A stretch of 58,057 nt of DNA, from IMG/VR virus record IMGVR_UViG_3300030103_002567, positions 1 through 58,057 of that record; one strand, written 5' to 3'. Each line of letters begins with the position of its first letter. Position 1 is the stretch's first letter. This document shows positions 1,771-15,263 of this stretch, in pieces. Below the pieces are notes generated by a model that was not told the origin of the DNA, searched no databases, and saw only the letters and a program-made list of their open reading frames with translations. The DNA comes from a virus (taxonomy: Duplodnaviria > Caudoviricetes). Made by a program: the position numbers and the translations under genes.

Positions 1771-1774
1771 TTTG

Positions 1775-1848
1775 TACTCCCATCAGGAATCGAACCTGAA
1801 ACCTACTGCTTAGAAGGCAGTTGCTCTATCCAGTTGAGCTATAGGAGC
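1775..1848 (-). tRNA. tRNA-Arg (anticodon UCU, reads AGA)
   Basis: Minus strand GCTCCTATAGCTCAACTGGATAGAGCA ACTGC CT-TCT-AA GCAGT AGGTT TCAGG TTCGATT CCTGA TGGGAGT A folds into a full cloverleaf; CCA not encoded. Confidence 0.96.
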
Positions 1849-1889
1849 ATACTCTAAGATTATACTATTATACTACATAAACAAGGATT

Positions 1890-2070
1890 TATGACTAAAG
1901 TCGTCATTTAGATGACGAGAATAGTGACGAGAATTGATATCTAACTAATTGATTATCAATACTAGTGACGACTTTGACGACTTTTTTCTTGATTTTTAAA
2001 AGAAATAAAAAAAGATATATAAGAATATATATATATAGAAAAAGCAGGGATGAACTTGTCAGACTCGTCA
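1890..2070. repeat. TGACGA iteron-like repeats around an AT-rich core (candidate replication origin)
   Basis: TGACGA at 1913, 1925, 1966, 1975; inverted TCGTCA at 1901, 2065; AT-rich stretch about 1981-2043; located at a strand switch. Confidence 0.55.
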
Positions 2071-2105
2071 CACACTGCTATATTAGTGGCATAAAATTAA
2101 ATGTA

Positions 2106-3719
2106 ATGAATGAGTCAGGATATACACCAAAAGATTTACACTTTGACCAGGAGGCAAGAGAACGCCTTATATCTGGCATAGAAAAGATTGCTAAGGCAGT
2201 CAAGTCCACAATGGGCCCTATGGGTAAGACAGTTATCATAGAGTCGCCTAACCACACACATGGAATCACAGTTACCAAAGATGGAGTCACCGTGGCTAAA
2301 GCCGTGGCATTACTAGACCCGATTGAGAATCTAGCTGTAAAGATGGTTAGAGAGGCTGCCGACAGGACAGCCCTGTCGTCAGGTGATGGAACTACCACCG
2401 CTATCGTATTAACGGAGTCTATTGTTATGGAAGGGTTAAAAATGATTGAGCCACACCATAATGTGTCTGAGGTTATACGATGTATAAACAGGGAGTGCGA
2501 GAAAGTAATAGAAAAGCTAAACGAACACTCTATAAGTATAAACGAAAAGAGATTAAAGGATGTAGCGACTATATCTGCCAATAACGACCCTGATATAGGA
2601 AGTATCATCCATGATACCTATAAGAAGGTTGGAATGAAGGACGGTATAGTTACTGTAGAGAAAAGCCAGACTACGGAGACTAGTTCTGATGTTACGGACG
2701 GAATCAAGATAGATAGAGGGTATACTTCACCCTTATTCATAAACAACCACAAAAAGGATGAGTGCGTTTTTGATAACGTAGACATTCTTGTTACTGACAG
2801 CTCTATTGACAACCTTGAGAAGATTGCTCCTGTTCTTAATGCATGCATCACAGAGGGACGTAAGCTATTGATTATAGGACCATGCTCTCAGAATACTATG
2901 AACGCCTTAGCGGCTAATGCTGTAAGAGGTAAGCTTCAGGTGTGTAATGTATTACCACCAGACTTTGGATTCCGTAAGCACGAGCTGATGAGCGACATTG
3001 CTCTATCTGTTGGGGCTAAGTACTTCTCTGAGCAGACTATAGACAGTATACAGTTCTGTACTGTAGCTGACCTAGGAAAGGCTGACAGGGTCATTGTAGA
3101 CAGAGATGGCACTGTTGTCATTGGAGGTAAGGGAGACCAAGAGGAGATTGCTAGTCGCATTGAGGAGCTGAAGTCTGCTAAGGATAACTCGAAGAAGAAA
3201 GCTGAGAAGGACTTCATCCAAAGACGTATTGCAGGACTTAGAGGTTCGATAGGTGTAATACGTGTAGGGGGTAACTCAGATGTTGAGCAGAAGGAGCTGT
3301 ACGACAGAGTGGACGACGCTGTGTGTGCTGTGCGCTCTGCGCTTGATGATGGGGTGCTGCCAGGCGGAGGGGTTGCTCTACATAACGAGAGCATAGACCT
3401 GTTAGAGGTTGGTGAAACTCAAGAGGAGACTGTGGCCAGGAAGATTTTATTAGAGGCCATAAAAGCTCCTATGCGTCAGATACTTGAGAATGCAGGGTTG
3501 GACCACAACGAGATAGTCTCTAAGATTCAGTGTACCGCCACAGGTAGAGAGGGTTACGACGTTAAGAACGGGGTGCATGGTGACATGATTGACATGGGTA
3601 TTATTGACCCGACCAAGGTTACTAAGAACGCTCTGCGTAATGCTGTCTCTGTTGCGACAACTATACTAGGTACGAATGCGATAATCACAATGGCTAGAAG
3701 TTATGAGACCAGTAAATAA
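2106..3719 (+). CDS. groEL: Phage-encoded chaperonin GroEL (Cpn60), about 537 aa
   Basis: AVKSTMGPMG, VTKDGVTVAK, GDGTTTA, VATISANND, DRVDDAVCAVRSA, GVLPGGG, GIIDPTKV; start moved to the ATG at 2106. Confidence 0.97.
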   Translation: MNESGYTPKDLHFDQEARERLISGIEKIAKAVKSTMGPMGKTVIIESPNHTHGITVTKDGVTVAKAVALLDPIENLAVKMVREAADRTALSSGDGTTTAIVLTESIVMEGLKMIEPHHNVSEVIRCINRECEKVIEKLNEHSISINEKRLKDVATISANNDPDIGSIIHDTYKKVGMKDGIVTVEKSQTTETSSDVTDGIKIDRGYTSPLFINNHKKDECVFDNVDILVTDSSIDNLEKIAPVLNACITEGRKLLIIGPCSQNTMNALAANAVRGKLQVCNVLPPDFGFRKHELMSDIALSVGAKYFSEQTIDSIQFCTVADLGKADRVIVDRDGTVVIGGKGDQEEIASRIEELKSAKDNSKKKAEKDFIQRRIAGLRGSIGVIRVGGNSDVEQKELYDRVDDAVCAVRSALDDGVLPGGGVALHNESIDLLEVGETQEETVARKILLEAIKAPMRQILENAGLDHNEIVSKIQCTATGREGYDVKNGVHGDMIDMGIIDPTKVTKNALRNAVSVATTILGTNAIITMARSYETSK

Positions 3720-3966
3720 ATATATTATAATCGAAAAGATAGAGGAGGAGCTCGTCAATAAGGAGGGGCTGATTCTATCTAAGGACGATGAGATTCACTA
3801 CAGATACAAGAAGGCTCGCGTGTTAGGCGTGGGCGAGAACGTGTCTGAGATTTCAAGTGGCGACCATATATACTACGACCAGTCGGGTGGGTACGACATG
3901 ATGATAGATGGCGAGAAGCATACCATCATACTTGACCGCGACGTTGTTGTCGTTCTTGATTCATAG
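3703..3966 (+). CDS. groES: Co-chaperonin GroES (Cpn10)
   Basis: MRPVNKYIIIE...GLIL...ARVLGVGENV..ISSGDHIYY...IDGEKHTIILDRDVV fits the Cpn10 pattern; overlaps the end of groEL. Confidence 0.88.
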   Translation: MRPVNKYIIIEKIEEELVNKEGLILSKDDEIHYRYKKARVLGVGENVSEISSGDHIYYDQSGGYDMMIDGEKHTIILDRDVVVVLDS

Positions 3967-4339
3967 ACTCAATGGCTCTACGCCTTCTACGTTTCATATA
4001 AGTTTCGTCATTCCGAAGTGCAGGGTCTACTTCCTGTACACTCTCTCCTGACAGCACGCTGTACAGGTTGCGAATCATGCGCTTACTATTCGGACTGACT
4101 TCATAGAGGCCCTTTATGGGGCCTCTTTTACTTAGGTTGACTATCCACCCGTTAGATACTAATCGAGCAAACCTATTCTTGTCCCATGAGAAAACCTTCT
4201 CGAACCTCTTAAAGTGTTCACGCCTAAACCTTCCTTCATCAAAAAGGAAGAGTAGCATTTCTAAATCTGGGTACGATAATTTATGCTTGTCGCAGATGTA
4301 CATGCGTACCGTGCGCCAATACTTGAGATAATTATTCAT
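3926..4339 (-). CDS. Putative winged-helix (MarR-like) DNA-binding protein
   Basis: LSYPDLEMLLFLF...RFARLVSNGWIV...LYEVSP resembles a wHTH; lone minus-strand gene; start taken at MNNYLK. Confidence 0.55.
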   Translation of the reverse strand: MNNYLKYWRTVRMYICDKHKLSYPDLEMLLFLFDEGRFRREHFKRFEKVFSWDKNRFARLVSNGWIVNLSKRGPIKGLYEVSPNSKRMIRNLYSVLSGESVQEVDPALRNDETYMKRRRRRAIESMNQERQQRRGQV

Positions 4340-4365
4340 TATATTTGATTGATAAATATACAAAG

Positions 4366-4608
4366 GTGAGTAAGACTTCCGACTACTATAAATCAAATCC
4401 TGAGGCTAGAGAGAAGAGGCTTGAGTACCAAAGGAGGTATAACAGGCAAAGAAGGGAGCGATTGAGAAGAAGCTTCCTTAATAAAGAGAATAGAAAAAGG
4501 GGTACTTACGGAAATGGCGACGGACTGGATGTTTCTCACAGAAGCGATGGTTCGACGTTTTTAGAAGATGAAGGAACAAACAGAGCAAGAAACAGAGGCA
4601 AGGCATGA
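4366..4608 (+). CDS. Small basic HNH-like protein
   Basis: GDGLDVSH...E...NRARN pattern of minimal phage HNH-like proteins; GTG start downstream of TATATTTG at 4340-4347. Confidence 0.55.
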   Translation: MSKTSDYYKSNPEAREKRLEYQRRYNRQRRERLRRSFLNKENRKRGTYGNGDGLDVSHRSDGSTFLEDEGTNRARNRGKA

Positions 4609-4922
4609 GTATATTGAATCCAAGATTTAGGAGAGGACCATTCTCTATGAGGTTTGCACAGTTCAACCCTTTGCAGAGTCAGTATACGCCACAGGCAAGC
4701 CTGACCATGAGAGGTAAAAGGGGTTTAACAACTACACTTAGCACCACCATGAGAAACACTCAGCCTGCTCCATTCTTAAAAGAAGGGTTTCAATATAAGC
4801 CTGCGCTTAGCTTTGGGGCTAACTTCAATAAAAGATTTAAAAAGGGTAACTTAAACCTTAATGTTAATGTAGACCCAAAGGGGCCACAGAAGGTCTCTGC
4901 GGGAGTTAGATACACGTTCTAA
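4605..4922 (+). CDS. Hypothetical basic protein (105 aa)
   Basis: ATGA overlap with the upstream gene; ends in beta-strand-like SAGVRYTF. Confidence 0.7.
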   Translation: MSILNPRFRRGPFSMRFAQFNPLQSQYTPQASLTMRGKRGLTTTLSTTMRNTQPAPFLKEGFQYKPALSFGANFNKRFKKGNLNLNVNVDPKGPQKVSAGVRYTF

Positions 4923-5089
4923 TGGCAAAAGGAAGAACAAAAAAGAAAGGAAATAAAATTTGTCCAGAGGGCATAGCCTGGGCAAAGAGGACGTTTGATA
5001 CATACCCATCAGCGTATGCGAACATGGCGGCCTCTAAGTATTGTAAAGACCCGAACTATGCTAAGGGTGCTAAAAAAGGTAAGAAATAA
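4922..5089 (+). CDS. Small basic protein (55 aa) with a YPSAYAN motif
   Basis: Hand translation MAKGRTKKKGNKICPEGIAWAKRTFDTYPSAYANMAASKYCKDPNYAKGAKKGKK; TAATG coupling on both sides. Confidence 0.8.
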   Translation: MAKGRTKKKGNKICPEGIAWAKRTFDTYPSAYANMAASKYCKDPNYAKGAKKGKK

Positions 5090-5271
5090 TGCCAACAGTA
5101 ACATATAAATGCGGAATGTCTGGAAGGGAAATGACTAAAACGTTTCCTTATAATGCGACTGGGAAAGCTCAAGCTGACTCTTTTGCTAAAGTGACAGGCG
5201 GGACTTTGGTCAACAATCCAAACTACGGTATGGAGGGCCAGTCAACTACTAAGAAAAACAAGTCTTATTAA
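5089..5271 (+). CDS. Small hypothetical protein (60 aa)
   Basis: TAATG coupling to the upstream gene. Confidence 0.75.
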   Translation: MPTVTYKCGMSGREMTKTFPYNATGKAQADSFAKVTGGTLVNNPNYGMEGQSTTKKNKSY

Positions 5272-5272
5272 T

Positions 5273-5434
5273 ATGGCTGATAAGAAAAGAGTTGCTGCCC
5301 CTAAAGGATTTCATTGGATGAAGGGCAGGGGTGGTAAACTCAAATTAATGAAGGACCCTTCATCTGGATATAAAAAGCATGCTGGTTCTTCCAAGTATGC
5401 TGATTTCCCAATTCAAAAAATACATAGGAAATAA
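5273..5434 (+). CDS. Small basic protein (53 aa, MADKKRVAAPKGFHWMK...)
   Basis: Hand translation; fills the gap and is TAATG-coupled to the next ORF. Confidence 0.75.
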   Translation: MADKKRVAAPKGFHWMKGRGGKLKLMKDPSSGYKKHAGSSKYADFPIQKIHRK

Positions 5435-5583
5435 TGGCAGGTTCAGTAAGATATGGCGATATAAACATAAGTGACGCTCAGGTTGATAGGCTTTTAACTG
5501 CTAAGCAGCAAACATTACCAAAAGACCTTCAGAAGAAAATAGTAAAGTCTAAATTGAAAGACAACAAACGTGGGAGAGCTTAA
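5434..5583 (+). CDS. Small basic protein (49 aa, MAGSVRYGDINISDAQ...)
   Basis: Hand translation; TAATG coupling. Confidence 0.7.
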   Translation: MAGSVRYGDINISDAQVDRLLTAKQQTLPKDLQKKIVKSKLKDNKRGRA

Positions 5584-5824
5584 AAAATGGAGAGACGAGA
5601 AATGGGTACGAATAGGGACGGATGGTTCTATACTGGGCGCTTGTGGTACGAGCAAGAACAAGAAGAACCCAGACCGTTGCCTACCCCTGAAGAAGGCTCA
5701 GAGCATGAGCAAGGCGGAGCGTGCTGCCACTGCAAGGAAAAAGAAGCGTGCGGGTGCGAGAGGGAAGACTGTGGTTGCGAACACTGCTGCAGGAAGAGTA
5801 ACTAAAAAATATACTAAGCGATGA
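5570..5824 (+). CDS. Basic protein of the LKKW.EKW / CLP type (possibly DUF5872-like)
   Basis: GELKKWRDEKWV...CLP...MSKAERAATARKKK; family name from memory, unverified. Confidence 0.65.
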   Translation: MGELKKWRDEKWVRIGTDGSILGACGTSKNKKNPDRCLPLKKAQSMSKAERAATARKKKRAGARGKTVVANTAAGRVTKKYTKR

Positions 5825-6270
5825 TAGATTACAATAGCATACCATTCAAGAACTCAGCCATTGATAAAATAGCTGGAACTCTCGGTAAAAAGAGAGATGT
5901 AGGACTTGGGGATACTCCTCAGGGTGGATACTCTAAGATTGTTACGGTCAAAGGCCCTCATACTTCTATTAGAAGGGAAACAAGATTAGAGCCTTCAGGA
6001 GATGTGTCTTTTAGTTTGTCCAAAGAGTTAAAGCATAAGAACAGGGTCAAAACAAAAGATGTGCAAATATCTGATGGTAGGGGCACAATAACCACGGTCA
6101 GGAAGACTGGCAAGGGTATTGTGACTAGAGAAATGAACATAAGGCCAGGCAGAGCAAGAAGGCTTCAAAGAAGATACACGAGAAGGGTTAACAGGATGCA
6201 TACAGACGGAGGCCCAGGGGCTACTCAAGTTCCTACTCAAGGAGGGGGTATGATATATAAATACGAATAA
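5821..6270 (+). CDS. Hypothetical Arg/Lys-rich protein (149 aa)
   Basis: ATGA overlap; strongly basic. Confidence 0.7.
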   Translation: MIDYNSIPFKNSAIDKIAGTLGKKRDVGLGDTPQGGYSKIVTVKGPHTSIRRETRLEPSGDVSFSLSKELKHKNRVKTKDVQISDGRGTITTVRKTGKGIVTREMNIRPGRARRLQRRYTRRVNRMHTDGGPGATQVPTQGGGMIYKYE

Positions 6271-6293
6271 TCCATAATTAGTATCTTTAAGAC

Positions 6294-6467
6294 ATGAAAA
6301 AATTAAACGAAATTTTAAAGTGGGCTACCAGCGATTTAGCGGTAGCAGTGTATGCTGCAATTATTGCAGGAGTTTTGTTAGCTAAGGGTGTTACTGTTAT
6401 TGGCGGTGCAGGCCTAGGCATCGCTGCCACAAAGTTGTGGTCTGCGACTAAATCTTTGATAAAATAA
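6294..6467 (+). CDS. Small membrane protein (57 aa)
   Basis: Hand translation MKKLNEILKWATSDLAVAVYAAIIAGVLLAKGVTVIGGAGLGIAATKLWSATKSLIK; TATCTTTA box just upstream at 6282-6289. Confidence 0.75.
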   Translation: MKKLNEILKWATSDLAVAVYAAIIAGVLLAKGVTVIGGAGLGIAATKLWSATKSLIK

Positions 6468-6471
6468 AAAT

Positions 6472-6969
6472 ATGCCAAAGTATAAATTACCAATGAGAGA
6501 TAGGGCCATTGACGTCCTTGGTGTTGTAGAGCCTCAATCAACAATGAAAGGTGGGAACAGACAATACTATACAATGGGTCGTGGAGCGGGCCAGGGTCAA
6601 TCGCCTGAGGGCCACTATAGATACTCTCAAAATATAGGGACTATAGGCTATAAAAATAAAAGGGGTAAAGGAAAGAAAATTAGCGTTACCGAAACAAACC
6701 TTTCCAAGGATGAGCAGTACCTGCCATCTGGTCAAATGAGATATGAGTATTCATTTGGGAAAGGAGGTAGAAGAACTAAAAGCTTTGTGGGAACCTATGA
6801 ACCAGACACTAGAGCTGGAGGTGACGACTACTATGTTGCTACAGGATTTGCATCCAAAAAGGATGAAAGAAAATACAAGAGATTTAGTAGAAAAGTAGAG
6901 CGATTTAACAAAAAGGCTGAGAAAAGAGGCTTGTCTCCTTTAAGCATTCCTGAGTTCAGACTTTTTTAA
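6472..6969 (+). CDS. Hypothetical basic protein (165 aa)
   Basis: ORF in the co-oriented cluster; TAATG-coupled to the next gene. Confidence 0.7.
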   Translation: MPKYKLPMRDRAIDVLGVVEPQSTMKGGNRQYYTMGRGAGQGQSPEGHYRYSQNIGTIGYKNKRGKGKKISVTETNLSKDEQYLPSGQMRYEYSFGKGGRRTKSFVGTYEPDTRAGGDDYYVATGFASKKDERKYKRFSRKVERFNKKAEKRGLSPLSIPEFRLF

Positions 6970-7259
6970 TGGCGGACAAGGCTTCAATGCCCTGTAATAA
7001 GCCTAGAAGGTCAGACCGAGCAGGGAAAAAGAAAATGGTCAAAGCGTGCGAAGGGGGCAAGGAGAAGCTAATCCACTTCGGGGCTAAGGGCTATGGGCAT
7101 AACTATTCTGCTGCGGCAAGAAAATCATTCAGGGCAAGGCATAAGTGTGGTACAGCTAAGAGCAAGCTTACTGCTCGCTACTGGGCGTGTAAGACATTAT
7201 GGGCTGGCAAGGGTGGTTCAACTAAATCATCCCCCAAAAGCAGGAAAGGAAAATACTAG
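6969..7259 (+). CDS. Basic protein of the FG..GY...RKSF.ARH...A.YWA...LW type (possibly DUF5754/DUF6321-like)
   Basis: LIHFGAKGY...ARKSFRARHKC...LTARYWACKTLW; family name from memory, unverified. Confidence 0.7.
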   Translation: MADKASMPCNKPRRSDRAGKKKMVKACEGGKEKLIHFGAKGYGHNYSAAARKSFRARHKCGTAKSKLTARYWACKTLWAGKGGSTKSSPKSRKGKY

Positions 7260-7282
7260 TATATTTACAAAAACATTTCTAA

Positions 7283-8125
7283 ATGGATAGGCAGAGAAGA
7301 TTTAATAGGAGAAACAACCCAAGAAGGGCCTTTAGAACAACCAATCTAAACAGGGTTACAGATGACCAGGGTAATATCATTGGCTATCAGTCCGTAACTA
7401 CTCAGTCTAGGAGAAAAGCCAAGGGCAAGTCATACAGAGAGAAAACATTAACTCCTGTGTTTGATGCTGCTGGAAACCAGGTTGGATTTGAAAGAAATGT
7501 TACAAGATATAGAAACGTCAACCAAAGCAGAAAAGATAGAGCTAGAGGTCGAGGAGTTGCATACACGCCAGGCGACGAGAAAGGAGCTGAGTACGTAGAA
7601 ACAAGAAGCAGAACAAGGCTAAGAGGAGATGCGAGGAATCTTCCTAAGACATCTAGAATGAACACTTCTATTGGTTCTAGAGCAAGGGCTTATGGCGCTA
7701 CAGGAGGATATGGAGGAGGTAGCTACACTCCAAAAAAAGAGGGCATGACTATGAAGGAGGCATTCTTCAGCATGAAGCCTGGGGATAGCATAGATGAAAG
7801 CGCACCATTGGCAGCTACTGGAATGGGCAGATACTCTAGAAATAGAAGAAAACTAGCCAAGCAGGGAGTTGAAGACTTTAATGCAAACAGAAGGCTTGCA
7901 GCTCACTTGAGGACAGAGGGCACTTTGCGACGTTCAAGAAAAATCGAAAGAAAGCTTCAGCGAAGCACTACAAATGTAAACCCATACACAGGCTCTTATA
8001 GAGGAGCTAGGTTTAACCCAGATGCTGGATTCAAGGGTATGGTTAACCTTCAAGGAGGTCCAGTAAGTACCAAAGGTAATGCTTATCAATACTCAAGAAC
8101 CACAGGAATTTACGGAGTAAGATAA
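7283..8125 (+). CDS. Highly Arg-rich hypothetical protein (280 aa)
   Basis: Long ORF with many AGA codons; TATATTTA box at 7260-7267. Confidence 0.75.
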   Translation: MDRQRRFNRRNNPRRAFRTTNLNRVTDDQGNIIGYQSVTTQSRRKAKGKSYREKTLTPVFDAAGNQVGFERNVTRYRNVNQSRKDRARGRGVAYTPGDEKGAEYVETRSRTRLRGDARNLPKTSRMNTSIGSRARAYGATGGYGGGSYTPKKEGMTMKEAFFSMKPGDSIDESAPLAATGMGRYSRNRRKLAKQGVEDFNANRRLAAHLRTEGTLRRSRKIERKLQRSTTNVNPYTGSYRGARFNPDAGFKGMVNLQGGPVSTKGNAYQYSRTTGIYGVR

Positions 8126-8283
8126 TGAAGTCGAGAGGATTAGGCGATAGCATAGAGAAGTTTACTAAGGTTACGGGAATAAAAAAGGTTGTCGAGAAAG
8201 CTTCGGAGGTTACAGGTAAGCCGTGTGGATGCGGTGAGCGAAGGGACACCTTGAACAGGCTGTTTCCGTATGATAGAAAATAG
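8125..8283 (+). CDS. Small protein (52 aa) with GLGD...TGIK...CGC..R...LN motif
   Basis: Hand translation MKSRGLGDSIEKFTKVTGIKKVVEKASEVTGKPCGCGERRDTLNRLFPYDRK; TAATG coupling. Confidence 0.8.
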   Translation: MKSRGLGDSIEKFTKVTGIKKVVEKASEVTGKPCGCGERRDTLNRLFPYDRK

Positions 8284-8284
8284 T

Positions 8285-8292
8285 TAAATTTG
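8285..8292 (+). promoter_or_regulatory. Bacteroidota sigma-A -7 box TAAATTTG
   Basis: Matches the TAnnTTTG consensus, 5 nt before the ATG at 8297. Confidence 0.55.
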
Positions 8293-8296
8293 CATT

Positions 8297-8797
8297 ATGG
8301 CACATCAAAAATTACAGACAGAAAGAGCGTATAGCGTAATACTTAACGGAGCGAATCAAGTTGCTATTCCAGACCCAGCGCTACAATATGCGTCTGGTGT
8401 TACAGAAGCCTACACAGGCTCAGCTCTAACTCCTAACAATCCAATGCAGGACAACGACGCAACATTTATAACTTCAGGCGCTGAGGTTGGAGACTTCATA
8501 ATAAACACTACCGCAGGAGCAGAGGCTATAACTAAGGTTAGAGAGGTTATAAGTGAGACGGTTCTAAATTTAGATGACAATATATTTTCAGCTAATCAAA
8601 ACTATATTATATACAAGAGGTCTGAAAATTCATCATGTGTTCTATATGTTGGGGGAGCAGGTGATGTTTCTGTAAGAACAATAGGTGGGGACGAGGTTGT
8701 CTTCAAAGCTATTCCAGCAGGCACATTTATACCAGTTCAAGTAACTCACGTTGGTTTATCAGGTCACACCGCCACTGACATCATAGCACTTAGGTAA
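8297..8797 (+). CDS. Putative virion structural (spike/fibre base-like) protein
   Basis: C-terminal LYVGGAGDVSV...F.AIPAGTFIPVQV...TATDIIAL motif plus an inserted D..ATF beta module. Confidence 0.6.
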   Translation: MAHQKLQTERAYSVILNGANQVAIPDPALQYASGVTEAYTGSALTPNNPMQDNDATFITSGAEVGDFIINTTAGAEAITKVREVISETVLNLDDNIFSANQNYIIYKRSENSSCVLYVGGAGDVSVRTIGGDEVVFKAIPAGTFIPVQVTHVGLSGHTATDIIALR

Positions 8798-9642
8798 TGA
8801 TAGCCATATTTAATGGCATATCAGTTGGGCGACCTTGCATCCCAATGGATGGAGCCTCATTGTTGCTTGATGAGTATGGTGCAAACATAACTGCAGCATA
8901 TTCACTAAGAAAGCTACGTACTGCTTACACAGGTTCGGCTATTAGAATTAGAAGGTTTAGCGATAATACAGAGCAAGACATAGGATTTGATTCGGATGGT
9001 AACTTAGACACTACAGCAATAACATCTTTTGTTGGTTCAAACTCTGCCGCTGTTGTGACTTGGTATGAGCAAAGCGGTCAAGCAAGTAATTGGAATCTAA
9101 CCAACTCAACAACAACAGCACAGCCACGCATCACAGACTCAAGTGGGAATATATATACTTTAAATGGCAAGCCTGCAATCCAAGACACAAGTGGACCGCA
9201 AAGGCTAAGTTTCAATACAACGTTTGGAAATGCACCTTCAGCAATAAATCAGCCTTTTCATACTTTCAGTTTAGTGAAATACAGTAACACGTCTGACAAA
9301 GTTTTATTTGATGGTGAGTCGGGAGATGTTAGAATCTCTGCATATTATGGTGGAGTGTATAGAATAGGCGCAGGCACAAATGTAAACACAGGCACAACAC
9401 AGAGCAACACTCAAGTTCTTGTTGATGCAAGTTTTAACGGCACAAGCTCCTACCTGCTTGAAAATAATGTAAGTCAAGGCACAAGTCTAAACATTGGCAC
9501 AAACAATATGAGCAGACTTTACTTAATGGGTAAGTCAAGGGTGCTTGGTCAGACTCAAGAATTTATCATATATGGTGCAGATGTTACAACAGATAGGGCT
9601 AACATTGCCACAAACATTAACACATACTATTCAATTTATTAA
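8797..9642 (+). CDS. Putative receptor-binding/fibre protein with a ConA/LamG-like beta-sandwich
   Basis: AAYSLRKLRTAYTGSAIRIRR..DNTEQDIGFD, VVTWYEQSG, QEFIIY...IATNINTYYSIY; Ser/Thr/Asn-rich. Confidence 0.65.
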   Translation: MIAIFNGISVGRPCIPMDGASLLLDEYGANITAAYSLRKLRTAYTGSAIRIRRFSDNTEQDIGFDSDGNLDTTAITSFVGSNSAAVVTWYEQSGQASNWNLTNSTTTAQPRITDSSGNIYTLNGKPAIQDTSGPQRLSFNTTFGNAPSAINQPFHTFSLVKYSNTSDKVLFDGESGDVRISAYYGGVYRIGAGTNVNTGTTQSNTQVLVDASFNGTSSYLLENNVSQGTSLNIGTNNMSRLYLMGKSRVLGQTQEFIIYGADVTTDRANIATNINTYYSIY

Positions 9643-9644
9643 TT

Positions 9645-9926
9645 ATGCATCTATACTATCCATTCCCTGACGAACAAGCTGTCATTGAGGCAAGTTTAGA
9701 TATATATGACTTGAACGCACCTCCAAGAGATGAGCGTGTAACGTTATATTCTTTTGATTGGTTTCCCAATTCAGGTAATTCAACCTATGTTCTCGCATGG
9801 GAGGATGAGGAGCAAACATTTGATACAGGAGATATACTAGATGGAATTACAGGACTTACAGAAGAAGAAGCCATTGACGCAGGCTATCAATTGGGTGAAG
9901 AGCATAGTGGCAGAGCCAACGCTTAA
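9645..9926 (+). CDS. Acidic hypothetical protein (possible fibre chaperone)
   Basis: Directly follows the fibre gene; acidic. Confidence 0.55.
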   Translation: MHLYYPFPDEQAVIEASLDIYDLNAPPRDERVTLYSFDWFPNSGNSTYVLAWEDEEQTFDTGDILDGITGLTEEEAIDAGYQLGEEHSGRANA

Positions 9927-10635
9927 CTTGAGGGAAGCAGTTCCATATATGTTCTGCATATTCCTTGCGTTCATGCTACTAAACAAGTGTGAGCAGGAGA
10001 AGGGGTATCAGCAGGAGATAAAGAGAATTGAAAATAATAACGTTGCCCTACTAGACACTATCCGAAACTACATGGATGACGATGGCTTATATGCTGCTGA
10101 TATCAGGGCACTGAACCTAAAGCTGGATGAGTTAGGCGATAGTATAGCAGTCGATAGGTCTCAACCACCTGTAACCATAACCAATCAGACAACAGAGATA
10201 CGAGAGACTATTGAAGTCCCTGCGTTTATATACGACACAATTACTATAGTAAACACCGATACATTCTATAAGCAGATATACGTGGAGCGCACGGACACGT
10301 TCGGAAAGAGCAATAGGTCCATAGAGGTGACTATACCTACTGATGGCGTAGTAGTGGCGGATGCTATAATAAACCTAGAGCAGGACATATGGGTTGAGAA
10401 CACGATTGAGCAGAACAATAAGACGGGTGAGGTGTTCTTTAGAATGAGAACTGACTACCCAGGAGTTACGTTCAATAATGCAAGTGCTATACTAGTAGAC
10501 CCGAAGCAACTTGTAAAGGTACGCAAATCTTTTGGTGTTGGTTTTCAGACGGGTATAGGCATCACAACAACGGGTCAAACAAGGCATTACATAGGTGTGG
10601 GTATCCACTATTCGCCTAAGTTTTTACAATGGTAA
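9841..10635 (+). CDS. Membrane-anchored coiled-coil protein with C-terminal amphipathic beta strands (spanin-like candidate)
   Basis: TM segment YMFCIFLAFMLL, coiled coil, C-terminal FGVGFQTGIG...YIGVGIHY; next to the holin. Confidence 0.5.
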   Translation: MELQDLQKKKPLTQAINWVKSIVAEPTLNLREAVPYMFCIFLAFMLLNKCEQEKGYQQEIKRIENNNVALLDTIRNYMDDDGLYAADIRALNLKLDELGDSIAVDRSQPPVTITNQTTEIRETIEVPAFIYDTITIVNTDTFYKQIYVERTDTFGKSNRSIEVTIPTDGVVVADAIINLEQDIWVENTIEQNNKTGEVFFRMRTDYPGVTFNNASAILVDPKQLVKVRKSFGVGFQTGIGITTTGQTRHYIGVGIHYSPKFLQW

Positions 10636-10656
10636 AAAAGTATTAATTTTAAGGGC

Positions 10657-10917
10657 ATGAAACTGATAACGAAAGAGACCGTTGTCGGCATGCCAATGTC
10701 AACCTTTGTATGGATAATGGGAATTATATTCTCAGTATTCTTGGCATACTTTGAATTGAAAGCTGAAATAGACGAGGCCAAGAAGATGCCTCCACAAGAA
10801 ATATCCGCTGAAGAGATTAAAGTTTCTCTTGACGGAATTCAAAAACAGCTTGACTTAATGAATACTAAAATCGACAGACTTGATGAGAGACTTTACGAAC
10901 TCAATTCTGCAGAGTAA
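10657..10917 (+). CDS. Single-TM coiled-coil membrane protein
   Basis: TM FVWIMGIIFSVFLAYF followed by a heptad-like tail KIDRLDERLY. Confidence 0.7.
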   Translation: MKLITKETVVGMPMSTFVWIMGIIFSVFLAYFELKAEIDEAKKMPPQEISAEEIKVSLDGIQKQLDLMNTKIDRLDERLYELNSAE

Positions 10918-11158
10918 AGGTTGGGAGATATTTCGTGCTGGCTGGAGACCAACTATAGGTTGGGTGTGTGGGCTGGCACTTTTTTACAACTTTATTGCTA
11001 GAGATATTATTGTTATCTTCACGGAACGATATGGCGAACCTGCACAGATGGAACATCTGATTACAATACTTGTAACGATGCTTGGTCTAGGCGGGATGAG
11101 GACATACGAAAAAATTAAACAAAATGAAATTAAAGAAAGAACAACTAGAATCGATTAA
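10880..11158 (+). CDS. Holin of the 3TM / GTA-holin type (short form)
   Basis: GWRPTIGWVCGLAL.YNFI and L..MLGLGGMRTYEK signatures. Confidence 0.85.
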   Translation: MMRDFTNSILQSKGWEIFRAGWRPTIGWVCGLALFYNFIARDIIVIFTERYGEPAQMEHLITILVTMLGLGGMRTYEKIKQNEIKERTTRID

Positions 11159-11360
11159 GGAATTAAGGTCTAGAATGGCAAGGCTAACTGATACTATTGC
11201 TAGACTAGAGATGCACAAGCACCAAGTGATTCAGGAATCTGTTGCTACGGGCAAAGCGCTTCAAGCATTAGAGGATAGCATTACGACTGAGCACGGGGCA
11301 GATGTATCTGTTAATTTAGAAACAGGAGAAATAAATAAAAAGAATGGGAAAGATATCTGA
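11124..11360 (+). CDS. Small coiled-coil protein
   Basis: Heptad pattern ending in VNLETGEI. Confidence 0.7.
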   Translation: MKLKKEQLESIKELRSRMARLTDTIARLEMHKHQVIQESVATGKALQALEDSITTEHGADVSVNLETGEINKKNGKDI

Positions 11361-11898
11361 TACTTCAAAGTACGCTACAGTAACACCTGCAACGGGAGAC
11401 CTTATTGTTGGGACTGACGTAAGCGATTCTAACAATACGAAAACATTCAAGGTAGGTGAGATTGCTGGGCTAACTGGCGAGCACATGGAGTATTTTGATG
11501 GAACATCTGCTGCTGTTACTACGATAAGCAACACTTCTGACTTTTTTGTGCTAAACACAACAACAGCTAGCAATCTTTCAAACGGCAACCTAACTCACGC
11601 CAATAACAAGATAACATACACGGGAGCAGAGACAAAAACATTTAAGTTTGAGGCAACTTGCAGTGGAAGCTCAAGTAACAACAATGAAATACATTTTGCT
11701 TTTTTCAAAAACACTTCCATAATAACATCTAGCGAGCAGGACTCAGTAACATCTAGTGGGGGTAAGGCTGTGTCTACTCCTTTCCAATGCTTGGTTAGTT
11801 TGGCGAAGGATGATTTTGTTCAGGTTAGGGTAAAAAATGCTACGGGGGCAAACGACTTTACACTAGCCCATCTAAATGTTATTGCAACAGAAGTGTAA
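11344..11898 (+). CDS. Putative virion structural/fibre protein (184 aa)
   Basis: N-terminal KIS..Y....P...D.IVGTD....TKTF segment typical of fibre anchors; C1q/TNF-like C-terminus (LVSLAKDDFVQVRV). Confidence 0.55.
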   Translation: MGKISDTSKYATVTPATGDLIVGTDVSDSNNTKTFKVGEIAGLTGEHMEYFDGTSAAVTTISNTSDFFVLNTTTASNLSNGNLTHANNKITYTGAETKTFKFEATCSGSSSNNNEIHFAFFKNTSIITSSEQDSVTSSGGKAVSTPFQCLVSLAKDDFVQVRVKNATGANDFTLAHLNVIATEV

Positions 11899-12116
11899 TG
11901 CAAATCAGAAAAATTTCAATAGGAGCTGATTACAAGAACAGTGCTATGCACTATATCGTAGGGCAGGATGTTCTTGGAGGGGCTCACAAGATTCACTTAA
12001 TAAAAGAAGAGCAGGGTACATTTAAGGTTTGGATTGAGCAGAGAAACGAAGTGATGCTGTGGAAGTCCTTTGGCCCTAACATGCCTGTATCAGTAGAATA
12101 TAATATTAATTTTTAA
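11898..12116 (+). CDS. Hypothetical protein (72 aa, IRKISIGADYK..AMHY)
   Basis: TAATG coupling on both sides. Confidence 0.8.
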   Translation: MQIRKISIGADYKNSAMHYIVGQDVLGGAHKIHLIKEEQGTFKVWIEQRNEVMLWKSFGPNMPVSVEYNINF

Positions 12117-12640
12117 TGCAATCACCATATTGCTTCATCGTAAAGCCTGAGGGTGGCTTGCGATACAACAACGAGAATGAGTTTGGTCTTATCCTCAGCA
12201 ATACCCATGAAGACCATACAATCACTAATCGGAAAGCGTTAGTGGTAGAAACTCCTATTGGATACAAGGGAGATGTAAAGAAGGGGGATACCCTGATAGT
12301 TCATCACAACGTATTTAGAACTTACAACGACATGAAGGGTAGGCATCGAAGTGGCAGGAGCTACTTGAAGGATGACCTATTCCTGATTGACCCTGACCAA
12401 TTCTTTATGTACTCCCATAAGGGAGGCTGGAAGTGTCCAGGGAAGTATTGCTTCGTAAAACCTACAGGAGAGCACCTAACAGGAGAGATGAAGTACATAA
12501 ATAAAGAGCTAGAGGAGTTAGGTATACAATCTGGCGATTTAGTATCTTTTACTCCAGACAGTGAATACGAGTTTGAAATTGAAGGGGAAAAGCTATATAG
12601 AATGTTCACCAATAACATTTCTATTAAATGGAAAAAGTAG
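12116..12640 (+). CDS. Tandem GroES-like (double Cpn10-fold) protein
   Basis: Two GroES-like halves: FIVKP...LIL...ALVVETP...VKKGDTLIVHH and CFVKP...GIQSGDLVSF..EFEIEGEKLYRM...I. Confidence 0.65.
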   Translation: MQSPYCFIVKPEGGLRYNNENEFGLILSNTHEDHTITNRKALVVETPIGYKGDVKKGDTLIVHHNVFRTYNDMKGRHRSGRSYLKDDLFLIDPDQFFMYSHKGGWKCPGKYCFVKPTGEHLTGEMKYINKELEELGIQSGDLVSFTPDSEYEFEIEGEKLYRMFTNNISIKWKK

Positions 12641-12807
12641 AGAGGTGGCTTGATTGCGGATGTAAGCTCGTAAAAGTAAAAAGTAAATACAGATGGCAGA
12701 GATGTCCAAAGGCAGTAGAGATATATGAGCAATTCCAAAAAACAAAAGACCCTTCCTGGGATAGGAAGTACAGTGAACACTTCAAAGATAAAGTCAGAAA
12801 TTATTGA
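12628..12807 (+). CDS. Small hypothetical protein (59 aa, MEKVERWLDCGCK...)
   Basis: Hand translation; fills the gap between the GroES-like gene and the putative terminase small subunit. Confidence 0.5.
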   Translation: MEKVERWLDCGCKLVKVKSKYRWQRCPKAVEIYEQFQKTKDPSWDRKYSEHFKDKVRNY

Positions 12808-13042
12808 GGCAGGATACAAGGCTGTAAATCAATTAATAAAGGTTGCTCAAGAGGAGATAATAAAGCCCGACCCTGAGGACGAGCTTGCTGCTGACAGGTT
12901 GAAGAACGCTGCCGCCACAAAAAAATTAGCCATATTCGATGCTTTTGAGATACTATCAAGAATAGAATCTGAAAAAGAAACTTTAAATACTTCGGGAGGT
13001 AACACATCATTTACAGGATTTGCAGAACGAAACTCAAAATAA
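12773..13042 (+). CDS. Putative terminase small subunit
   Basis: Small helical protein overlapping the start of the large terminase; GTG start at 12773, alternative ATG at 12725. Confidence 0.55.
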   Translation: MNTSKIKSEIIEAGYKAVNQLIKVAQEEIIKPDPEDELAADRLKNAAATKKLAIFDAFEILSRIESEKETLNTSGGNTSFTGFAERNSK

Positions 13043-15263
13043 ATTATACGTAATATTAAACGACCATGTTCCAAAGACTGTTTTGGCTAAAAAGAACAAG
13101 GCTAAGTCTTGGGTTTACGGCTATGACAAGGTGCATGACATTGTCGTTATATCTAGAGATGGGACTATAGGAGACATCTATAATATCAATGGGTTGAACG
13201 TTGCACTACCTAGGCAGTCTAAAAATGCAATCAAGAGGTCTTCAAATGAGAGGAGTCAGTATTGGGAGAGGAGTGAATACCCCAAGAACCTAAAAAGAAT
13301 AAAAAGCATATTCCAGTGGAACGACATGTCTTCGGACTTCAAGTCGTCTTGGGTTGAATATATAGAGCAAGAGTTTGATAGGAGGGAGCATGGAGTTTGG
13401 TTTTACAACGCTGGGATTCCTACATATATTACAGGCTCACACTACATGTATTTGCAGTGGACTAAGATTGATGTTGGCTATCCTGATTATAGAGAAGCCA
13501 ATAGAATATTCTATATTTTTTGGGAGGCATGCAAGGCGGACAAGAGGTGCTTCGGAATGTGCTATTTAAAGATTAGGCGTTCAGGGTTTTCTTTTATGGG
13601 TGCGTCAGAGTCTGTTAATATGGCTACACTAGCTAAGGACTCTAGGATTGGTGTTTTATCCAAGACGGGTAACGATGCTAAGAAGCTATTCGTAGATAAG
13701 ATTGTGCCCATATCAAACAACTACCCGTTCTTTTTCAAACCTATTCAGGACGGTATGGACAGGCCTAAGACTGAGTTAGCGTATCGTGTTCCTGCATCTA
13801 AGATTACTAAGAAGAATATGCATCAGCTCGGTGACGATGATATAGATGGGTTGGACACAACTATAGACTGGAAGAACACAGCCGACAACAGTTATGATGG
13901 TGAGAAGCTTAAGCTATTGGTGCATGACGAGAGTGGCAAGTGGGAGAAACCTGAGAACATCCTGAACAACTGGCGTGTAACCAAGACTTGCCTAAGGTTG
14001 GGTAGCAGGGTTATAGGTAAGTGTATGATGGGCTCAACGTGTAATGCTCTAAACAAAGGAGGTAATAATTTCAAGAAACTATACGAGGACTCCAACCCAT
14101 CCAAGAGAAACGCCAATGGGCAAACTAAGAGTGGTCTATACTCATTATTCATTCCTATGGAGTGGAACTTCGAGGGATATATAGACAGGCACGGAATGCC
14201 TGTGTTTGCATCTCCCAAAACTTCTGTGGAGGGCGTGGACGGAGAGATGATAGATATGGGAGCTGTTGACTACTGGAATAACGAGATTGAGTCTTTGAAA
14301 GCTGATAGCAATGCGATGAATGAGTTCTATCGACAGTTCCCTAGGACAGAGTCTCACGCCTTCAGGGACGAGAGTAAGTCGTCTATATTCAACCTTACTA
14401 AAATATATCAGCAGGTAGACTATAATGATAATATGGTTCAGGCTCACACGCTAACCAGAGGTAGATTTTTCTGGAGTAACGGGCCTGACAGCAAGGTGGT
14501 GTGGAGTCCTGACAGGAACGGCAGGTTCTTGGTTTCTTGGCTTCCAAAGTCTAGTCTCCAGAACAATGTACTTGTAAGGAATGGGAGAAAGTACCCTGGC
14601 AATGAGCACATAGGCTCTTTTGGCTGTGACCCTTACGACATATCAGGAACTGTTGGCGGAGGCTCATCTAACGGTGCGCTTCACGGGATGACTAAGATGC
14701 ATATGGATGATGCACCAACCAATGAGTTCTTCTTAGAATATATAGCTAGGCCTCAGACAGCGGAGATGTTTTTCGAGGATGTGCTTATGGCTTGTGTATT
14801 CTATGGGATGCCAATACTTGTAGAGAACAATAAGCCGAGACTACTATATCATTTCAAGAACAGAGGGTATAGGTCATTCTCTATCAACAGGCCCGACAAA
14901 CCCTCTAACAAGCTCTCTAAGACCGAGAAAGAGCTTGGGGGTATACCTAACTCATCTGAGGATGTAAAGCAGTCTCATGCGTCAGCTATAGAGTCTTACA
15001 TAGAGAAGCATGTGGGGATAGATATGGACGGTTCTTTTAGAGAAGTTGGGGATATAGGCTCTATGTATTTTAATAACACCCTTTTGGACTGGGCTAAGTT
15101 TGATATAAACAATCGTACAAAGTACGATGCATCGATAAGTTCAGGGTTGGCTATTATGGCCAATCAAAAGCACCTTTATCAACCTCAAAAAGAAAGTTCA
15201 AAAATATCAATTAAATTTGCAAGATATAATAACAAGGGCAACACCAGTCAATTACGCCAATGA
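13020..15263 (+). CDS. terL: Terminase large subunit
   Basis: Walker A variant KIRRSGFS, Walker B LLVHDESGK, nuclease FGCDPYD and C-terminal D (KYDASISSG); precedes the portal. Confidence 0.92.
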   Translation: MQNETQNKLYVILNDHVPKTVLAKKNKAKSWVYGYDKVHDIVVISRDGTIGDIYNINGLNVALPRQSKNAIKRSSNERSQYWERSEYPKNLKRIKSIFQWNDMSSDFKSSWVEYIEQEFDRREHGVWFYNAGIPTYITGSHYMYLQWTKIDVGYPDYREANRIFYIFWEACKADKRCFGMCYLKIRRSGFSFMGASESVNMATLAKDSRIGVLSKTGNDAKKLFVDKIVPISNNYPFFFKPIQDGMDRPKTELAYRVPASKITKKNMHQLGDDDIDGLDTTIDWKNTADNSYDGEKLKLLVHDESGKWEKPENILNNWRVTKTCLRLGSRVIGKCMMGSTCNALNKGGNNFKKLYEDSNPSKRNANGQTKSGLYSLFIPMEWNFEGYIDRHGMPVFASPKTSVEGVDGEMIDMGAVDYWNNEIESLKADSNAMNEFYRQFPRTESHAFRDESKSSIFNLTKIYQQVDYNDNMVQAHTLTRGRFFWSNGPDSKVVWSPDRNGRFLVSWLPKSSLQNNVLVRNGRKYPGNEHIGSFGCDPYDISGTVGGGSSNGALHGMTKMHMDDAPTNEFFLEYIARPQTAEMFFEDVLMACVFYGMPILVENNKPRLLYHFKNRGYRSFSINRPDKPSNKLSKTEKELGGIPNSSEDVKQSHASAIESYIEKHVGIDMDGSFREVGDIGSMYFNNTLLDWAKFDINNRTKYDASISSGLAIMANQKHLYQPQKESSKISIKFARYNNKGNTSQLRQ

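Follow-up and report, generated by a model that had tools for sequence, protein, structure and literature searches.

The window, by which we mean the whole 58,057-nucleotide stretch analysed here, represents a complete podophage genome (about 58 kb) of a Pervagoviridae/Elemovirus-like group. Phages of this group have hosts of the Flavobacteria type. The genome carries a group I chaperonin system of three genes: groEL (2106..3719, plus strand; 537 aa), a single-domain groES (3703..3966, plus strand; 87 aa) and a tandem Cpn10, or Cpn20-like, gene (12116..12640, plus strand; 174 aa).

Chaperonin operon and packaging-gene cassette

GroEL and the 87-aa GroES are ordinary members of their families. 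The GroEL protein matched Pfam PF00118 (E 1.5e-57, 195.9 bits, cut-off 34.3) and phrog_5725 (E 6e-135), and it passed the NCBIfam GroEL subfamily cut-offs (NF009487, 499 bits versus 352); the cut-off of the equivalog TIGR02348 was missed (482 versus 582). Both the GDGTTT and GGG motifs were seen in the alignment, whereas the C-terminus lacks GGM repeats and ends in ...ITMARSYETSK, in agreement with the preliminary description of a GroEL with ATP-binding motifs and without a GGM tail. The closest solved sequence is an ancestral Fibrobacteres-Chlorobi-Bacteroidetes GroEL (1.9e-121). GroES, with the loop E-G-L-I-L-S-K-D-D-E, matched PF00166 (E 7.1e-10, 39.2 bits, cut-off 21.1) and phrog_3188 (1.8e-13), and in an alignment of 18 sequences G22 is invariant and the C-terminal R-D-V-V-V-V-L is conserved at 90% or more. 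The groES start at 3703 falls within the final groEL codons, giving an overlap of 17 nt and thus the groEL-then-groES order that had been noted before. A G+C-rich hairpin (4105..4126, plus strand; 9 pairs, 6 of them G-C) followed by a T-rich tail is located about 140 nt past groES. It is a possible but weak candidate for the terminator of the groEL-groES unit, since positions 1-16000 hold about as many terminator-like sites as chance predicts (12, with 11.1 expected).

The tandem gene lies 8 kb from groEL-groES within a conserved cassette of packaging genes. Its start overlaps the stop codon of orf72 (11898..12116, plus strand) in the sequence TAATG. This conserved small ORF adjoins the tandem gene in 79 of 80 IMG/VR loci and corresponds to gp088 in phi38:1 and gp31 in elemo. 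It belongs to no known family, with no match in Pfam, PHROG, NCBIfam or Atlas, and it is not Cpn10-like, as judged from hhalign comparisons with GroES and with either tandem half (probability at most 0.5%). The preliminary description placed the tandem gene just upstream of the terminase, but another conserved ORF of 105 aa, orf105 (12725..13042, plus strand), is situated in between and overlaps the terminase start. Searches of Pfam, PHROG and NCBIfam gave no family match for orf105, and only its position marks it as a candidate small terminase. It immediately precedes the large terminase gene, TerL (13020..15263, plus strand; phrog_6681, 6.9e-180), in 79 of 80 IMG/VR loci, and the portal gene (15260-17752; phrog_6547, 8.9e-155) follows. 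The whole order orf72-tandem-orf105-TerL is kept in the same proportion of loci (79/80).

The combination of groEL, groES and tandem gene is not peculiar to this phage, but spans a large phage family and is found again in Elemovirus, Cellulophaga phage phi38:1, MW202828.1 and metagenome contigs. All three genes are annotated in the isolates elemo (Elemovirus), MW202828.1 and phi38:1; the GroEL of phi38:1, gp054, has been seen by mass spectrometry (PMC13288928) and the phi38:1 GroES is covered in the available part of PMC5649160. The tandem gene was present in 12 IMG/VR records, of which nine contained both GroEL and the single GroES, three contained neither, and none contained only one of the two. 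One of the three operon-less records is a contig with just 8,978 nt of sequence ahead of the tandem gene, whereas a syntenic complete relative has its groEL-groES operon about 10 kb upstream; the other two are fragments of roughly 50%.

Two fused co-chaperonin domains

The 174-aa protein matched phrog_13932, "co-chaperonin GroES", in two stretches (E 4.1e-19). The Pfam Cpn10 family gave no match for the window's own protein, but PF00166 matched 24 of 69 diverse members of the tandem family at E <= 0.01. A set of 703 homologues was found, and a separate count gave 850 clusters at 50% identity. An AlphaFold2 model (pLDDT 80.8, pTM 0.74) consists of two barrels, and its best solved matches are the plastid tandem co-chaperonin chains 7ekq_R/S in the PDB, on which residues 1-173 of the model superimpose with Z 10.6 over 151 aligned residues (rmsd 3.1-3.6 A; 3.1 A for 7ekq_R). 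Foldseek returned the identical top match (E 6.2e-4). As modelled, the protein joins two Cpn10-type barrels head to tail, in an arrangement like that of plastid Cpn20/CPN23. The earlier recognition of a second, double-domain GroES-like protein is thereby upheld, with a Cpn10 fold recovered for the whole chain, and firmly so for the C-domain.

The C-domain (residues 105-174; 12428..12640, plus strand) has a clear GroES fold, superimposing on GroES chains with Z 9.3-9.4 and rmsd 1.6-1.7 A over 68 residues, and it aligns with the phage GroES in hhalign at 95.3% probability (E 2.2e-8). The position of its mobile loop holds just 4 residues, so that the window protein has one long loop per chain. 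Across the tandem family, this loop is at most 5 aa long in 9 of 69 members and at least 12 aa long in 59.

The N-domain (residues 1-104; 12116..12427, plus strand) is a divergent GroES-like barrel. Modelled alone (pLDDT 66), it is only weakly Cpn10-like, although co-chaperonins rank first among its VIA matches (T4 gp31, Z 4.6; Hsp10, 4.0; 7ekq_S, 3.9; GroES, 3.6); Foldseek gave no match for the isolated domain at E < 0.1. In hhalign, the domain aligns with the phage GroES at 40% probability (E 2.9e-4) with the loops in register. Its long loop covers residues 12-38, of which 19-36 have pLDDT < 50, and contains G-L-I-L at 24-27, a stretch that together with the following serine aligns to the loop of the single GroES. 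The pattern G-hydrophobic-triplet-S..E-D also resembles the loop motif of the single GroES.

The most conserved motif of the tandem family, V-H-H-N-V-F-R (62-68), is likewise located in the N-domain. H63, H64 and N65 are conserved at 96-99% in 69 sequences and R39 is near-invariant in the same range, also among the strongest-conserved positions; this conservation corresponds to no known GroES feature. Furthermore, E32, H34 and R39 of the "mobile" loop are invariant among close relatives; flexible loops are not usually so constrained, and a different activity could be indicated. One explanation would be a role other than that of a chaperonin lid, with a GroES fold recruited for head assembly or DNA packaging, or for capping another ring, for instance a host ClpP, in the manner of the plastid Cpn11/20/23 in 7ekq. 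The conserved cassette, the specific site suggested by H-H-N and R39, the weak GroES likeness of the N-domain and the origin of the top structural match in a ClpP complex rather than a chaperonin complex are all in line with such a role. We nevertheless find it distinctly unlikely, given the strict co-occurrence with GroEL and GroES, the loop of GroES type bearing a hydrophobic triplet at the canonical position, the second long loop at the same C-domain position in 59 of 69 relatives, and the absence of the phi38:1 homolog gp089 from the genes labelled structural in its record.

A possible mixed lid and its alternatives

We consider that the tandem protein is probably a lid subunit of the phage's own GroEL system. 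It would be expressed from the late packaging and head block, dock on the phage GroEL through the N-domain loop and help to fold virion proteins. Three tandem chains and one single GroES would complete one ring of seven domains (3x2+1), the way in which chloroplasts resolve the even/odd symmetry problem. According to the available text of the sources, CPN11, CPN20 and CPN23 hetero-oligomerise to seven GroES-like domains (10.1101/432013; PMC5780408). With the C-domain loop deleted, the lid of the window phage would be left with just four long loops. We hold the mixed 3+1 composition tentatively, somewhat short of an even chance, and the explanation as a whole, with its lid subunit, late expression, docking loop and mixed ring, is a possibility that we rate just under evens.

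In support of the mixed lid, a complex prediction for three tandem chains and one GroES scored 0.63 versus 0.15 for the best control. Of 157 solved complexes 116 attained that mark, compared with 2 of 215 mismatched pairs, a calibration that refers to pairs of single chains while the modelled assembly has four. Three runs shared at least 91% of contacts, with partner pLDDT of at least 77. In the predicted complex, GroES pairs strands with two tandem copies: its N-strand (1-9) with the C-terminal strand (168-173) of the first and its C-strand (81-86) with the N-strand (1-8) of the second. The score may reflect solved GroES rings and 7ekq memorized by the predictor, and the prediction does not distinguish one mixed ring from a pair of separate rings.

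The latter arrangement would consist of a GroES heptamer and a tandem homo-oligomer, similar to the Cpn20 tetramer, each capping the phage GroEL and differing in time or substrate, for example with one lid acting early or generally and the other late on capsid and tail proteins. The co-occurrence of the three genes fits this equally well. Moreover, groES overlaps groEL, whereas the tandem gene is placed among late packaging genes, and in elemo the two loci are on opposite strands, so that their timing may differ; the hairpin past groES adds a weak indication. Plastid and apicoplast Cpn20 also function as homo-oligomers, as described for plants and Plasmodium in the text available from PMC5780408 and PMC3542282, and a single GroES partner is therefore not required by precedent. 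However, seven domains are impossible from a homo-oligomer of two-domain chains, the window tandem chain has one long loop only, and the single GroES is predicted with confidence between two tandem chains, with the reservation about memorized rings given above. Separate lids thus seem to us rather unlikely.

Another alternative is a lid for the host GroEL, as in T4 gp31, with the phage GroEL using the single GroES only. It is consistent with the structural match to gp31 (C-domain, Z 7.5; N-domain, Z 4.6, where gp31 ranks first) and with co-chaperonins found alone on many virioplankton contigs, as reported in the accessible part of PMC5649160. Against it stand the IMG/VR records, 0 of 12 with just GroEL or just GroES and the three operon-less ones being truncated or fragments, as well as the resemblance of the N-domain loop to that of the phage's own GroES. 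Likewise, the helix-I groove of GroEL is L-A-A-N in 6 of 7 aligned sequences (the window and six relatives) but L-V-V-N in the closest solved GroEL of bacterial type, a remodelling that suggests dedicated lids in a private pairing. A host-directed lid is in our opinion very improbable. The mixed lid matches the evidence at least as well as the two-lid and host-GroEL ideas of the preliminary description.

Relation to known chaperonin systems

The plastid Cpn20/Cpn21/CPN23 proteins (Chlamydomonas chains in 7ekq) also have two Cpn10 barrels head to tail per chain, and occur beside a single-domain Cpn10/CPN11 and a dedicated Cpn60; that one domain of CPN20 lacks the roof hairpin is counted as a further shared feature. 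The seven-domain mixed ring has been observed for the plastid proteins and is predicted for the phage. The phage protein differs in being viral and without a transit peptide, in its highly divergent N-domain with the H-H-N motif and, in the window phage, in the loss of the second domain's long loop. A search of the PDB with the tandem-family profile did not recover the 7ekq chains at E <= 10, and with no detectable sequence link an independent fusion is likely. The Cpn20 type is termed "chloroplast-specific" in the available text of a review (PMC5780408).

Virioplankton groEL-groES operons with a roof-less GroES have been known since 2017 (Marine et al., PMC5649160). According to the accessible text, they share the reversed gene order, the roof-less GroES and the tie to Cellulophaga-type podophages with the present system; that text mentions no second or tandem co-chaperonin, and the words "tandem" and "Cpn20" appear 0 times in the paper. 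Elemovirus gp30/gp43/gp44 (NC_055853) are the same three genes with the same pre-terminase cassette, and phi38:1 gp089 and the "chaperonin Cpn10" of Calle are annotated tandem homologs; the annotated homologs are 30-50% identical to the window protein. "Chaperonin cpn10" is listed as a Pervagoviridae core protein in the text available from PMC8776804. The tandem gene is thus already known under the name cpn10 or GroES, while its two-domain build and the consequence for lid symmetry are undescribed in the homolog records and the available text of the literature searched. Two lid units fused in one phage protein represent a design otherwise described for chloroplasts.

T4 gp31 and RB49 CocO are likewise phage lids with a GroES fold and no roof hairpin, and are needed for capsid folding. 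T4 gp31 is, however, a single-domain protein that acts on the host GroEL, whereas the window phage encodes its own. A phage-encoded GroEL homolog is also represented by gp146 of the jumbo phage EL (PDB 6tmt), which works without a co-chaperonin (cited in the accessible text of PMC5649160) and is distant from the window GroEL (4.3e-32, versus 1.9e-121 for the bacterial-type GroEL).

Architecture of the tandem protein

The preliminary description of this virus proposed a chaperonin system with GroEL, GroES and a second, double-domain GroES-like protein. This was confirmed by family matches and by an AlphaFold2 model of the double-domain protein, here called the tandem protein (174 aa, positions 12116-12640, plus strand). 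The tandem protein matches the family phrog_13932, "co-chaperonin GroES," over two stretches, and has no match to the Pfam family PF00166 at E ≤ 0.1. Among 69 diverse tandem relatives, 24 match PF00166 at E ≤ 0.01; one subfamily exceeds the cut-off with 25.2 bits, and sub-threshold matches were obtained for four relatives. When a profile of the tandem family was searched against the PDB sequences, GroES (E 0.3) was the sole match, and none of the chains from the Chlamydomonas ClpP/Cpn11-20-23 complex (PDB 7ekq) was retrieved. We also considered an internal repeat at the sequence level. A BLASTP comparison of the N- and C-terminal halves gave nothing and hhalign returned a probability of 9.5%, such that a duplication is unrecognizable by sequence.

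The model was built from an alignment of 35 rows and has a mean pLDDT of 80.8 and a pTM of 0.74, with pLDDT values below 50 solely at residues 19-36. In a Foldseek search with the whole model against all solved structures, the top match was 7ekq_R, a tandem co-chaperonin chain of the 7ekq complex (E 6.2e-4). The 7ekq tandem chain was also the best match by VIA-align (Z 10.6, 151 residues, rmsd 3.1-3.6 Å), with residues 1-173 of the model aligned onto residues 11-194 of 7ekq_R. Since both barrels superpose simultaneously on this chain, their mutual arrangement in the model is that of neighboring units in a lid ring.

The C-domain (residues 105-174) on its own superposes on GroES chains with Z 9.3-9.4 and rmsd 1.6-1.7 Å over 68 residues, and on T4 gp31 with Z 7.5. 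It also aligns over its full length with the single-GroES alignment of the phage group (hhalign probability 95.3%, E 2.2e-8). For the N-domain (residues 1-104), the hhalign comparison to phage GroES gave an E of 2.9e-4 with a probability of only 40%, the loops being in register. Folded alone, this domain has a pLDDT of 66 and no Foldseek match at E < 0.1. Co-chaperonins nevertheless account for four of its five top VIA matches among 48,161 chains, all with weak Z scores (T4 gp31, 4.6; human Hsp10, 4.0; 7ekq_S, a further tandem chain of the complex, 3.9; GroES, 3.6), and when modeled as part of the full-length protein it overlays the first domain of 7ekq_R. The models thus portray the tandem protein as a two-domain Cpn10-fold protein, firmly so for the C-domain and the overall tandem build and with moderate confidence for the N-domain taken alone. 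The claim of two GroES-like halves in the 174-aa protein is borne out in that the Cpn10 fold was recovered for the whole chain, with the Z score of 10.6 to 7ekq_R, and for the C-domain.

The two domains differ in their loops. The N-domain contains a 27-residue segment, located between P11 and R39, which includes the motif G-L-I-L-S, and at the matching place the single GroES has its mobile loop, E-G-L-I-L-S-K-D-D-E, with the glycine and the hydrophobic triplet present. The loop in the N-domain is 25-32 residues long in all 69 family sequences. In the C-domain, the loop at the mobile-loop position is only 4 aa long in the window, as compared to at least 12 residues, variable and often with a hydrophobic run, in 59 of the 69; loops of at most five residues were observed in nine sequences, including that of the window, and a loop of nine residues in one. 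The motif G-L-I-L and the low model confidence at residues 19-36 hint that the N-domain may bind GroEL via its mobile loop.

Conservation across the tandem family is highest at V-H-H-N-V-F-R (residues 62-68; window positions 12299-12319), and part of the loop in the N-domain is unusually conserved in a similar manner. Across the 69 tandem sequences, which are 27-56% identical, H63, H64 and N65 are conserved in 96-99% and R39 in 97%. To our knowledge, no known GroES feature explains the conservation of V-H-H-N-V-F-R and R39. The motif could be a metal site, a substrate site or an interface.

The GroEL and single GroES that accompany the tandem gene

The GroEL of the window (537 aa, positions 2106-3719, plus strand) matches Pfam PF00118 (E 1.5e-57; 195.9 bits, cut-off 34.3) and phrog_5725 (E 6e-135). 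It lies above the cut-offs of the NCBIfam subfamilies NF009487 and NF000592 and below that of the equivalog TIGR02348 (482 versus 582). Judged by its sequence, it is unambiguously a group I chaperonin. Among the PDB sequences, the top match is an ancestral GroEL of the Fibrobacteres-Chlorobi-Bacteroidetes (E 1.9e-121), and the protein is thus far nearer to the bacterial GroELs than to the phage EL chaperonin (E 4.3e-32), which works independently of a co-chaperonin. The ATP site of GroEL is defined by the motifs GDGTTT and GGG, both of which can be recognized when the protein is aligned to the nearest solved GroEL; the earlier observation of intact ATP-binding motifs therefore stands. So does that of a missing Gly-Gly-Met tail, which is typical of GroEL and not universal: the protein ends in ITMARSYETSK, and the tail is absent from the relatives too.

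The loop of GroES docks on helices H and I of GroEL (PMC5780408). In the GroEL of the window, these helices (residues ~240-275) contain K-I-A-P-V-L and M-N-A-L-A-A-N-A-V-R-G, the corresponding stretches of the nearest solved GroEL of bacterial type being L-L-P-I-L and L-A-T-L-V-V-N-K-L-R-G. The helix I sequence L-A-A-N is found in six of the seven GroELs of the group that were compared, the Flavobacterium phage elemo having L-Y-A-N. We infer that the change in the groove may reflect co-adaptation with the phage lids.

A search of genome contigs for a bacterial GroEL/GroES outgroup returned a single contig, WLWP01000006.1 (61,607 bases), from a metagenome-assembled genome labeled Pseudomonadales. 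It encodes a GroEL that is 57% identical to the phage GroEL, is as long as the genomes of these phages, and is probably a related phage contig that was binned into a bacterial genome.

The single GroES (87 aa, positions 3703-3966, plus strand) begins 17 nt ahead of the groEL stop, in agreement with the groEL-groES order reported initially. It matches PF00166 with 39.2 bits (cut-off 21.1) and remains under every NCBIfam cut-off for GroES. In an alignment of 18 sequences, G22 is invariant and the edge R-D-V-V-V-V-L is at least 90% conserved. As for the roof beta-hairpin region, the 87-aa protein matches positions 3-92 of the 93-position Pfam profile. Operons with the order GroEL-GroES have been reported as abundant in the virioplankton and linked to Cellulophaga podophages (Marine et al., 2017; PMC5649160), and the GroES in these contigs is described there as roof-less.

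Homologs of the tandem protein are numerous. We identified 703 in a collection clustered at 90% and, among representatives at 50% identity, 850 clusters at E ≤ 1e-3; IMG/VR contains at least 596 loci. The neighbors of the tandem protein in the Atlas are 94-100% viral; for the more distant subfamilies P0277, P0189 and P0208, the locus search gave no viral contig. The tandem gene is restricted to the Pervagoviridae/Elemovirus-like lineage; 287 phage records in GenBank have a GroEL-like gene, and 77 of these contain the tandem gene.

Because GroEL is usually located more than 10 kb from the tandem gene, whole records were searched for it. Both GroEL and a single GroES were identified in nine of 12 tandem-bearing IMG/VR records, neither in three and just one of them in none. 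The nine comprise the record of the window (G000), G001-G004 and G006, as well as G007, G008 (100% complete, 70 kb) and G009, the last three with the order groEL-groES. The tandem protein of G009 is only about 30% identical to that of the window. Two of the three records with neither gene are 52% (G010) and 48% (G011) complete. In the third, G005, the absence is attributed to truncation, since the contig starts 8,978 nt ahead of the tandem gene and, in the syntenic and complete G002, the operon is situated about 10 kb ahead of that gene.

A possible mixed lid

The Cpn20 protein of the plastids consists of two head-to-tail GroES-like domains and has been termed chloroplast-specific, and how an even number of domains fits a seven-fold ring is a symmetry question that is still discussed (PMC5780408). 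One solution is provided by CPN11, CPN20 and CPN23, which hetero-oligomerize to give seven GroES-like domains (10.1101/432013). The phage tandem protein resembles the plastid Cpn20 type in that two Cpn10 domains are arranged head to tail in one chain, but differs by the lack of a long loop in the C-domain, with its 4 aa in the window. Whereas Cpn20 and most of the tandem relatives have two long loops, the protein of the window has one per chain.

Two-domain chains alone cannot fill a seven-fold ring, while three such chains and one single GroES can, and we therefore predicted a complex of three tandem copies and one GroES, in which GroES was the partner scored; the input was a tandem-family alignment and the single-GroES alignment. 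The score was 0.63 (individual runs 0.64, 0.60 and 0.63), as compared to 0.15 for the best of three controls. It passes a mark that 116 of the 157 solved complexes and 2 of the 215 mismatched pairs attained in a calibration on single-chain pairs with other alignments. The runs share at least 91% of the contacts, and the partner pLDDT is at least 77. In the predicted complex, GroES contributes both of its terminal strands: residues 1-9 at its N-terminus pair with the C-terminal strand of one tandem copy (168-173), and residues 81-86 at its C-terminus pair with the N-terminal strand of a second copy (1-8). As modeled, this is the edge pairing expected within a lid ring, with a single GroES bridging two tandem chains. 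The edge residues M1, S3, P4 and F7 of the tandem protein are conserved in close relatives.

Such a pass denotes likeness rather than binding, and does not discriminate between one mixed ring and two kinds of ring; it may also reflect a memory of the solved GroES rings and of 7ekq. The mechanism put forward in the preliminary description, in which two different lids run substrate-specific folding cages or one lid serves the host GroEL, is one of several readings of these data. The best-supported reading is that the tandem protein would serve the phage's own GroEL as a Cpn20-like lid subunit and may well share the lid with the single GroES. The folding substrates are probably the capsid or other large virion proteins.

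A bolder hypothesis, which we consider possible and somewhat short of likely, is that phages of Flavobacteria-type hosts have independently arrived at the symmetry solution of the chloroplast. The lid would then be obligately mixed, with three two-domain chains and one GroES, and would act on a private GroEL with a remodeled groove, with only four long loops in the virus studied here. If true, this would represent a minimal three-gene system for studying how many loops, and which asymmetry, a GroEL cage needs.

The genes as such have been annotated before. The GenBank names of the tandem homologs are "chaperonin cpn10" or "co-chaperonin GroES," and "chaperonin cpn10" is listed among the eight core and three signature proteins of the Pervagoviridae (Bartlau et al., 2021; PMC8776804). 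The GroEL of the Cellulophaga phage phi38:1 (gp054) was seen by mass spectrometry in infected cells (PMC13288928), and a Maribacter phage is reported to encode "both GroEL and GroES homologs" (PMC11590407). The words "tandem" and "Cpn20" are absent from Marine et al. (2017), and we found no description of a phage tandem lid in the CC-licensed PMC and bioRxiv papers, a scope in which subscription papers could be missed. As far as searched, the two-domain architecture, the constant company of GroEL and GroES and the size of the viral family are unpublished.

Tandem Cpn10 lids have been treated as a plastid specialty, and the same build is here found in a very large viral family, accompanied by its own GroEL and single GroES in the records that could be judged. 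The label "cpn10/GroES" conceals a protein of two domains, which is encoded by a core gene of the Pervagoviridae, and the record is hereby corrected. The family includes cultured phage-host pairs, such as Cellulophaga phi38:1 and the Flavobacterium elemo phages, in which stoichiometry, loop number and substrate are testable.

Gene neighborhood and genome setting

The tandem gene belongs to a cassette, orf72 - tandem - (variable insert) - orf105 - terminase, that is almost invariant in the 80 loci kept of the at least 596 in IMG/VR. In the window, orf72 and orf105 are located at positions 11898-12116 and 12725-13042 (plus strand). The genes for orf72, orf105 and the large terminase are each present in 79 of the 80 loci, the lone miss for orf105 and the terminase being a locus of 1.6 kb. 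The cassette is also found in phi38:1 (gp088-gp089-gp090) and elemo (gp31-gp30-gp29). The stop of orf72 overlaps the tandem start (TAATG), and orf72 is a constant companion in 79 of the 80 loci, phi38:1 and elemo. A role for orf72 as a third GroES unit was rejected, as hhalign gave at most 0.5% against GroES and both tandem halves, and no match was found in Pfam, PHROG, NCBIfam or the Atlas. The orf105 gene overlaps the terminase start, and its position makes it a candidate for the small terminase. The annotated terminases of elemo and phi38:1 are about 130 aa longer, with no separate ORF, such that either gene model may be incorrect.

The window is a linear sequence of 58,057 bases with an estimated CheckV completeness of 100% and no exact terminal repeat. 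Nearly all genes between 2.1 and 43.3 kb are on the plus strand. PHROG matches identify the large terminase (13020-15263; E 6.9e-180), the portal (15260-17752), several virion structural proteins, a holin, an endolysin-like protein and replication genes. The nearest GenBank records are the uncultured podovirus MW202828.1 (~60 kb), 68 Flavobacterium "elemo" phages (genus Elemovirus), seven Cellulophaga phage records (phi38:1, phi40:1, Calle), the family of phi38:1 being the Pervagoviridae, and one Maribacter phage. Scans for promoters (44 versus 35.6 expected, with a tool that does not cover Bacteroidota-type promoters) and terminators (12 versus 11.1 expected) were at chance level.

Several other ORFs merit mention. 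Twelve successive small ORFs (52-280 aa) at positions 4345-8283 on the plus strand all encode strongly basic proteins (K+R 12-30%, net charge +5 to +38). Three of them were scanned and gave neither a Pfam nor a PHROG family. The twelve may be virion proteins that are internal, are ejected or condense DNA. An ORF of 1804 aa (23582-28996) matches a virion structural protein family in PHROG, and one of 3132 aa (33873-43271, plus strand) has no PHROG match at E ≤ 0.001. Finally, a lone minus-strand ORF of 156 aa (3926-4396; phrog_17028) is convergent with groES and contains a strong hairpin (4105-4126); its counterpart in MW202828.1 is annotated as "repressor protein."
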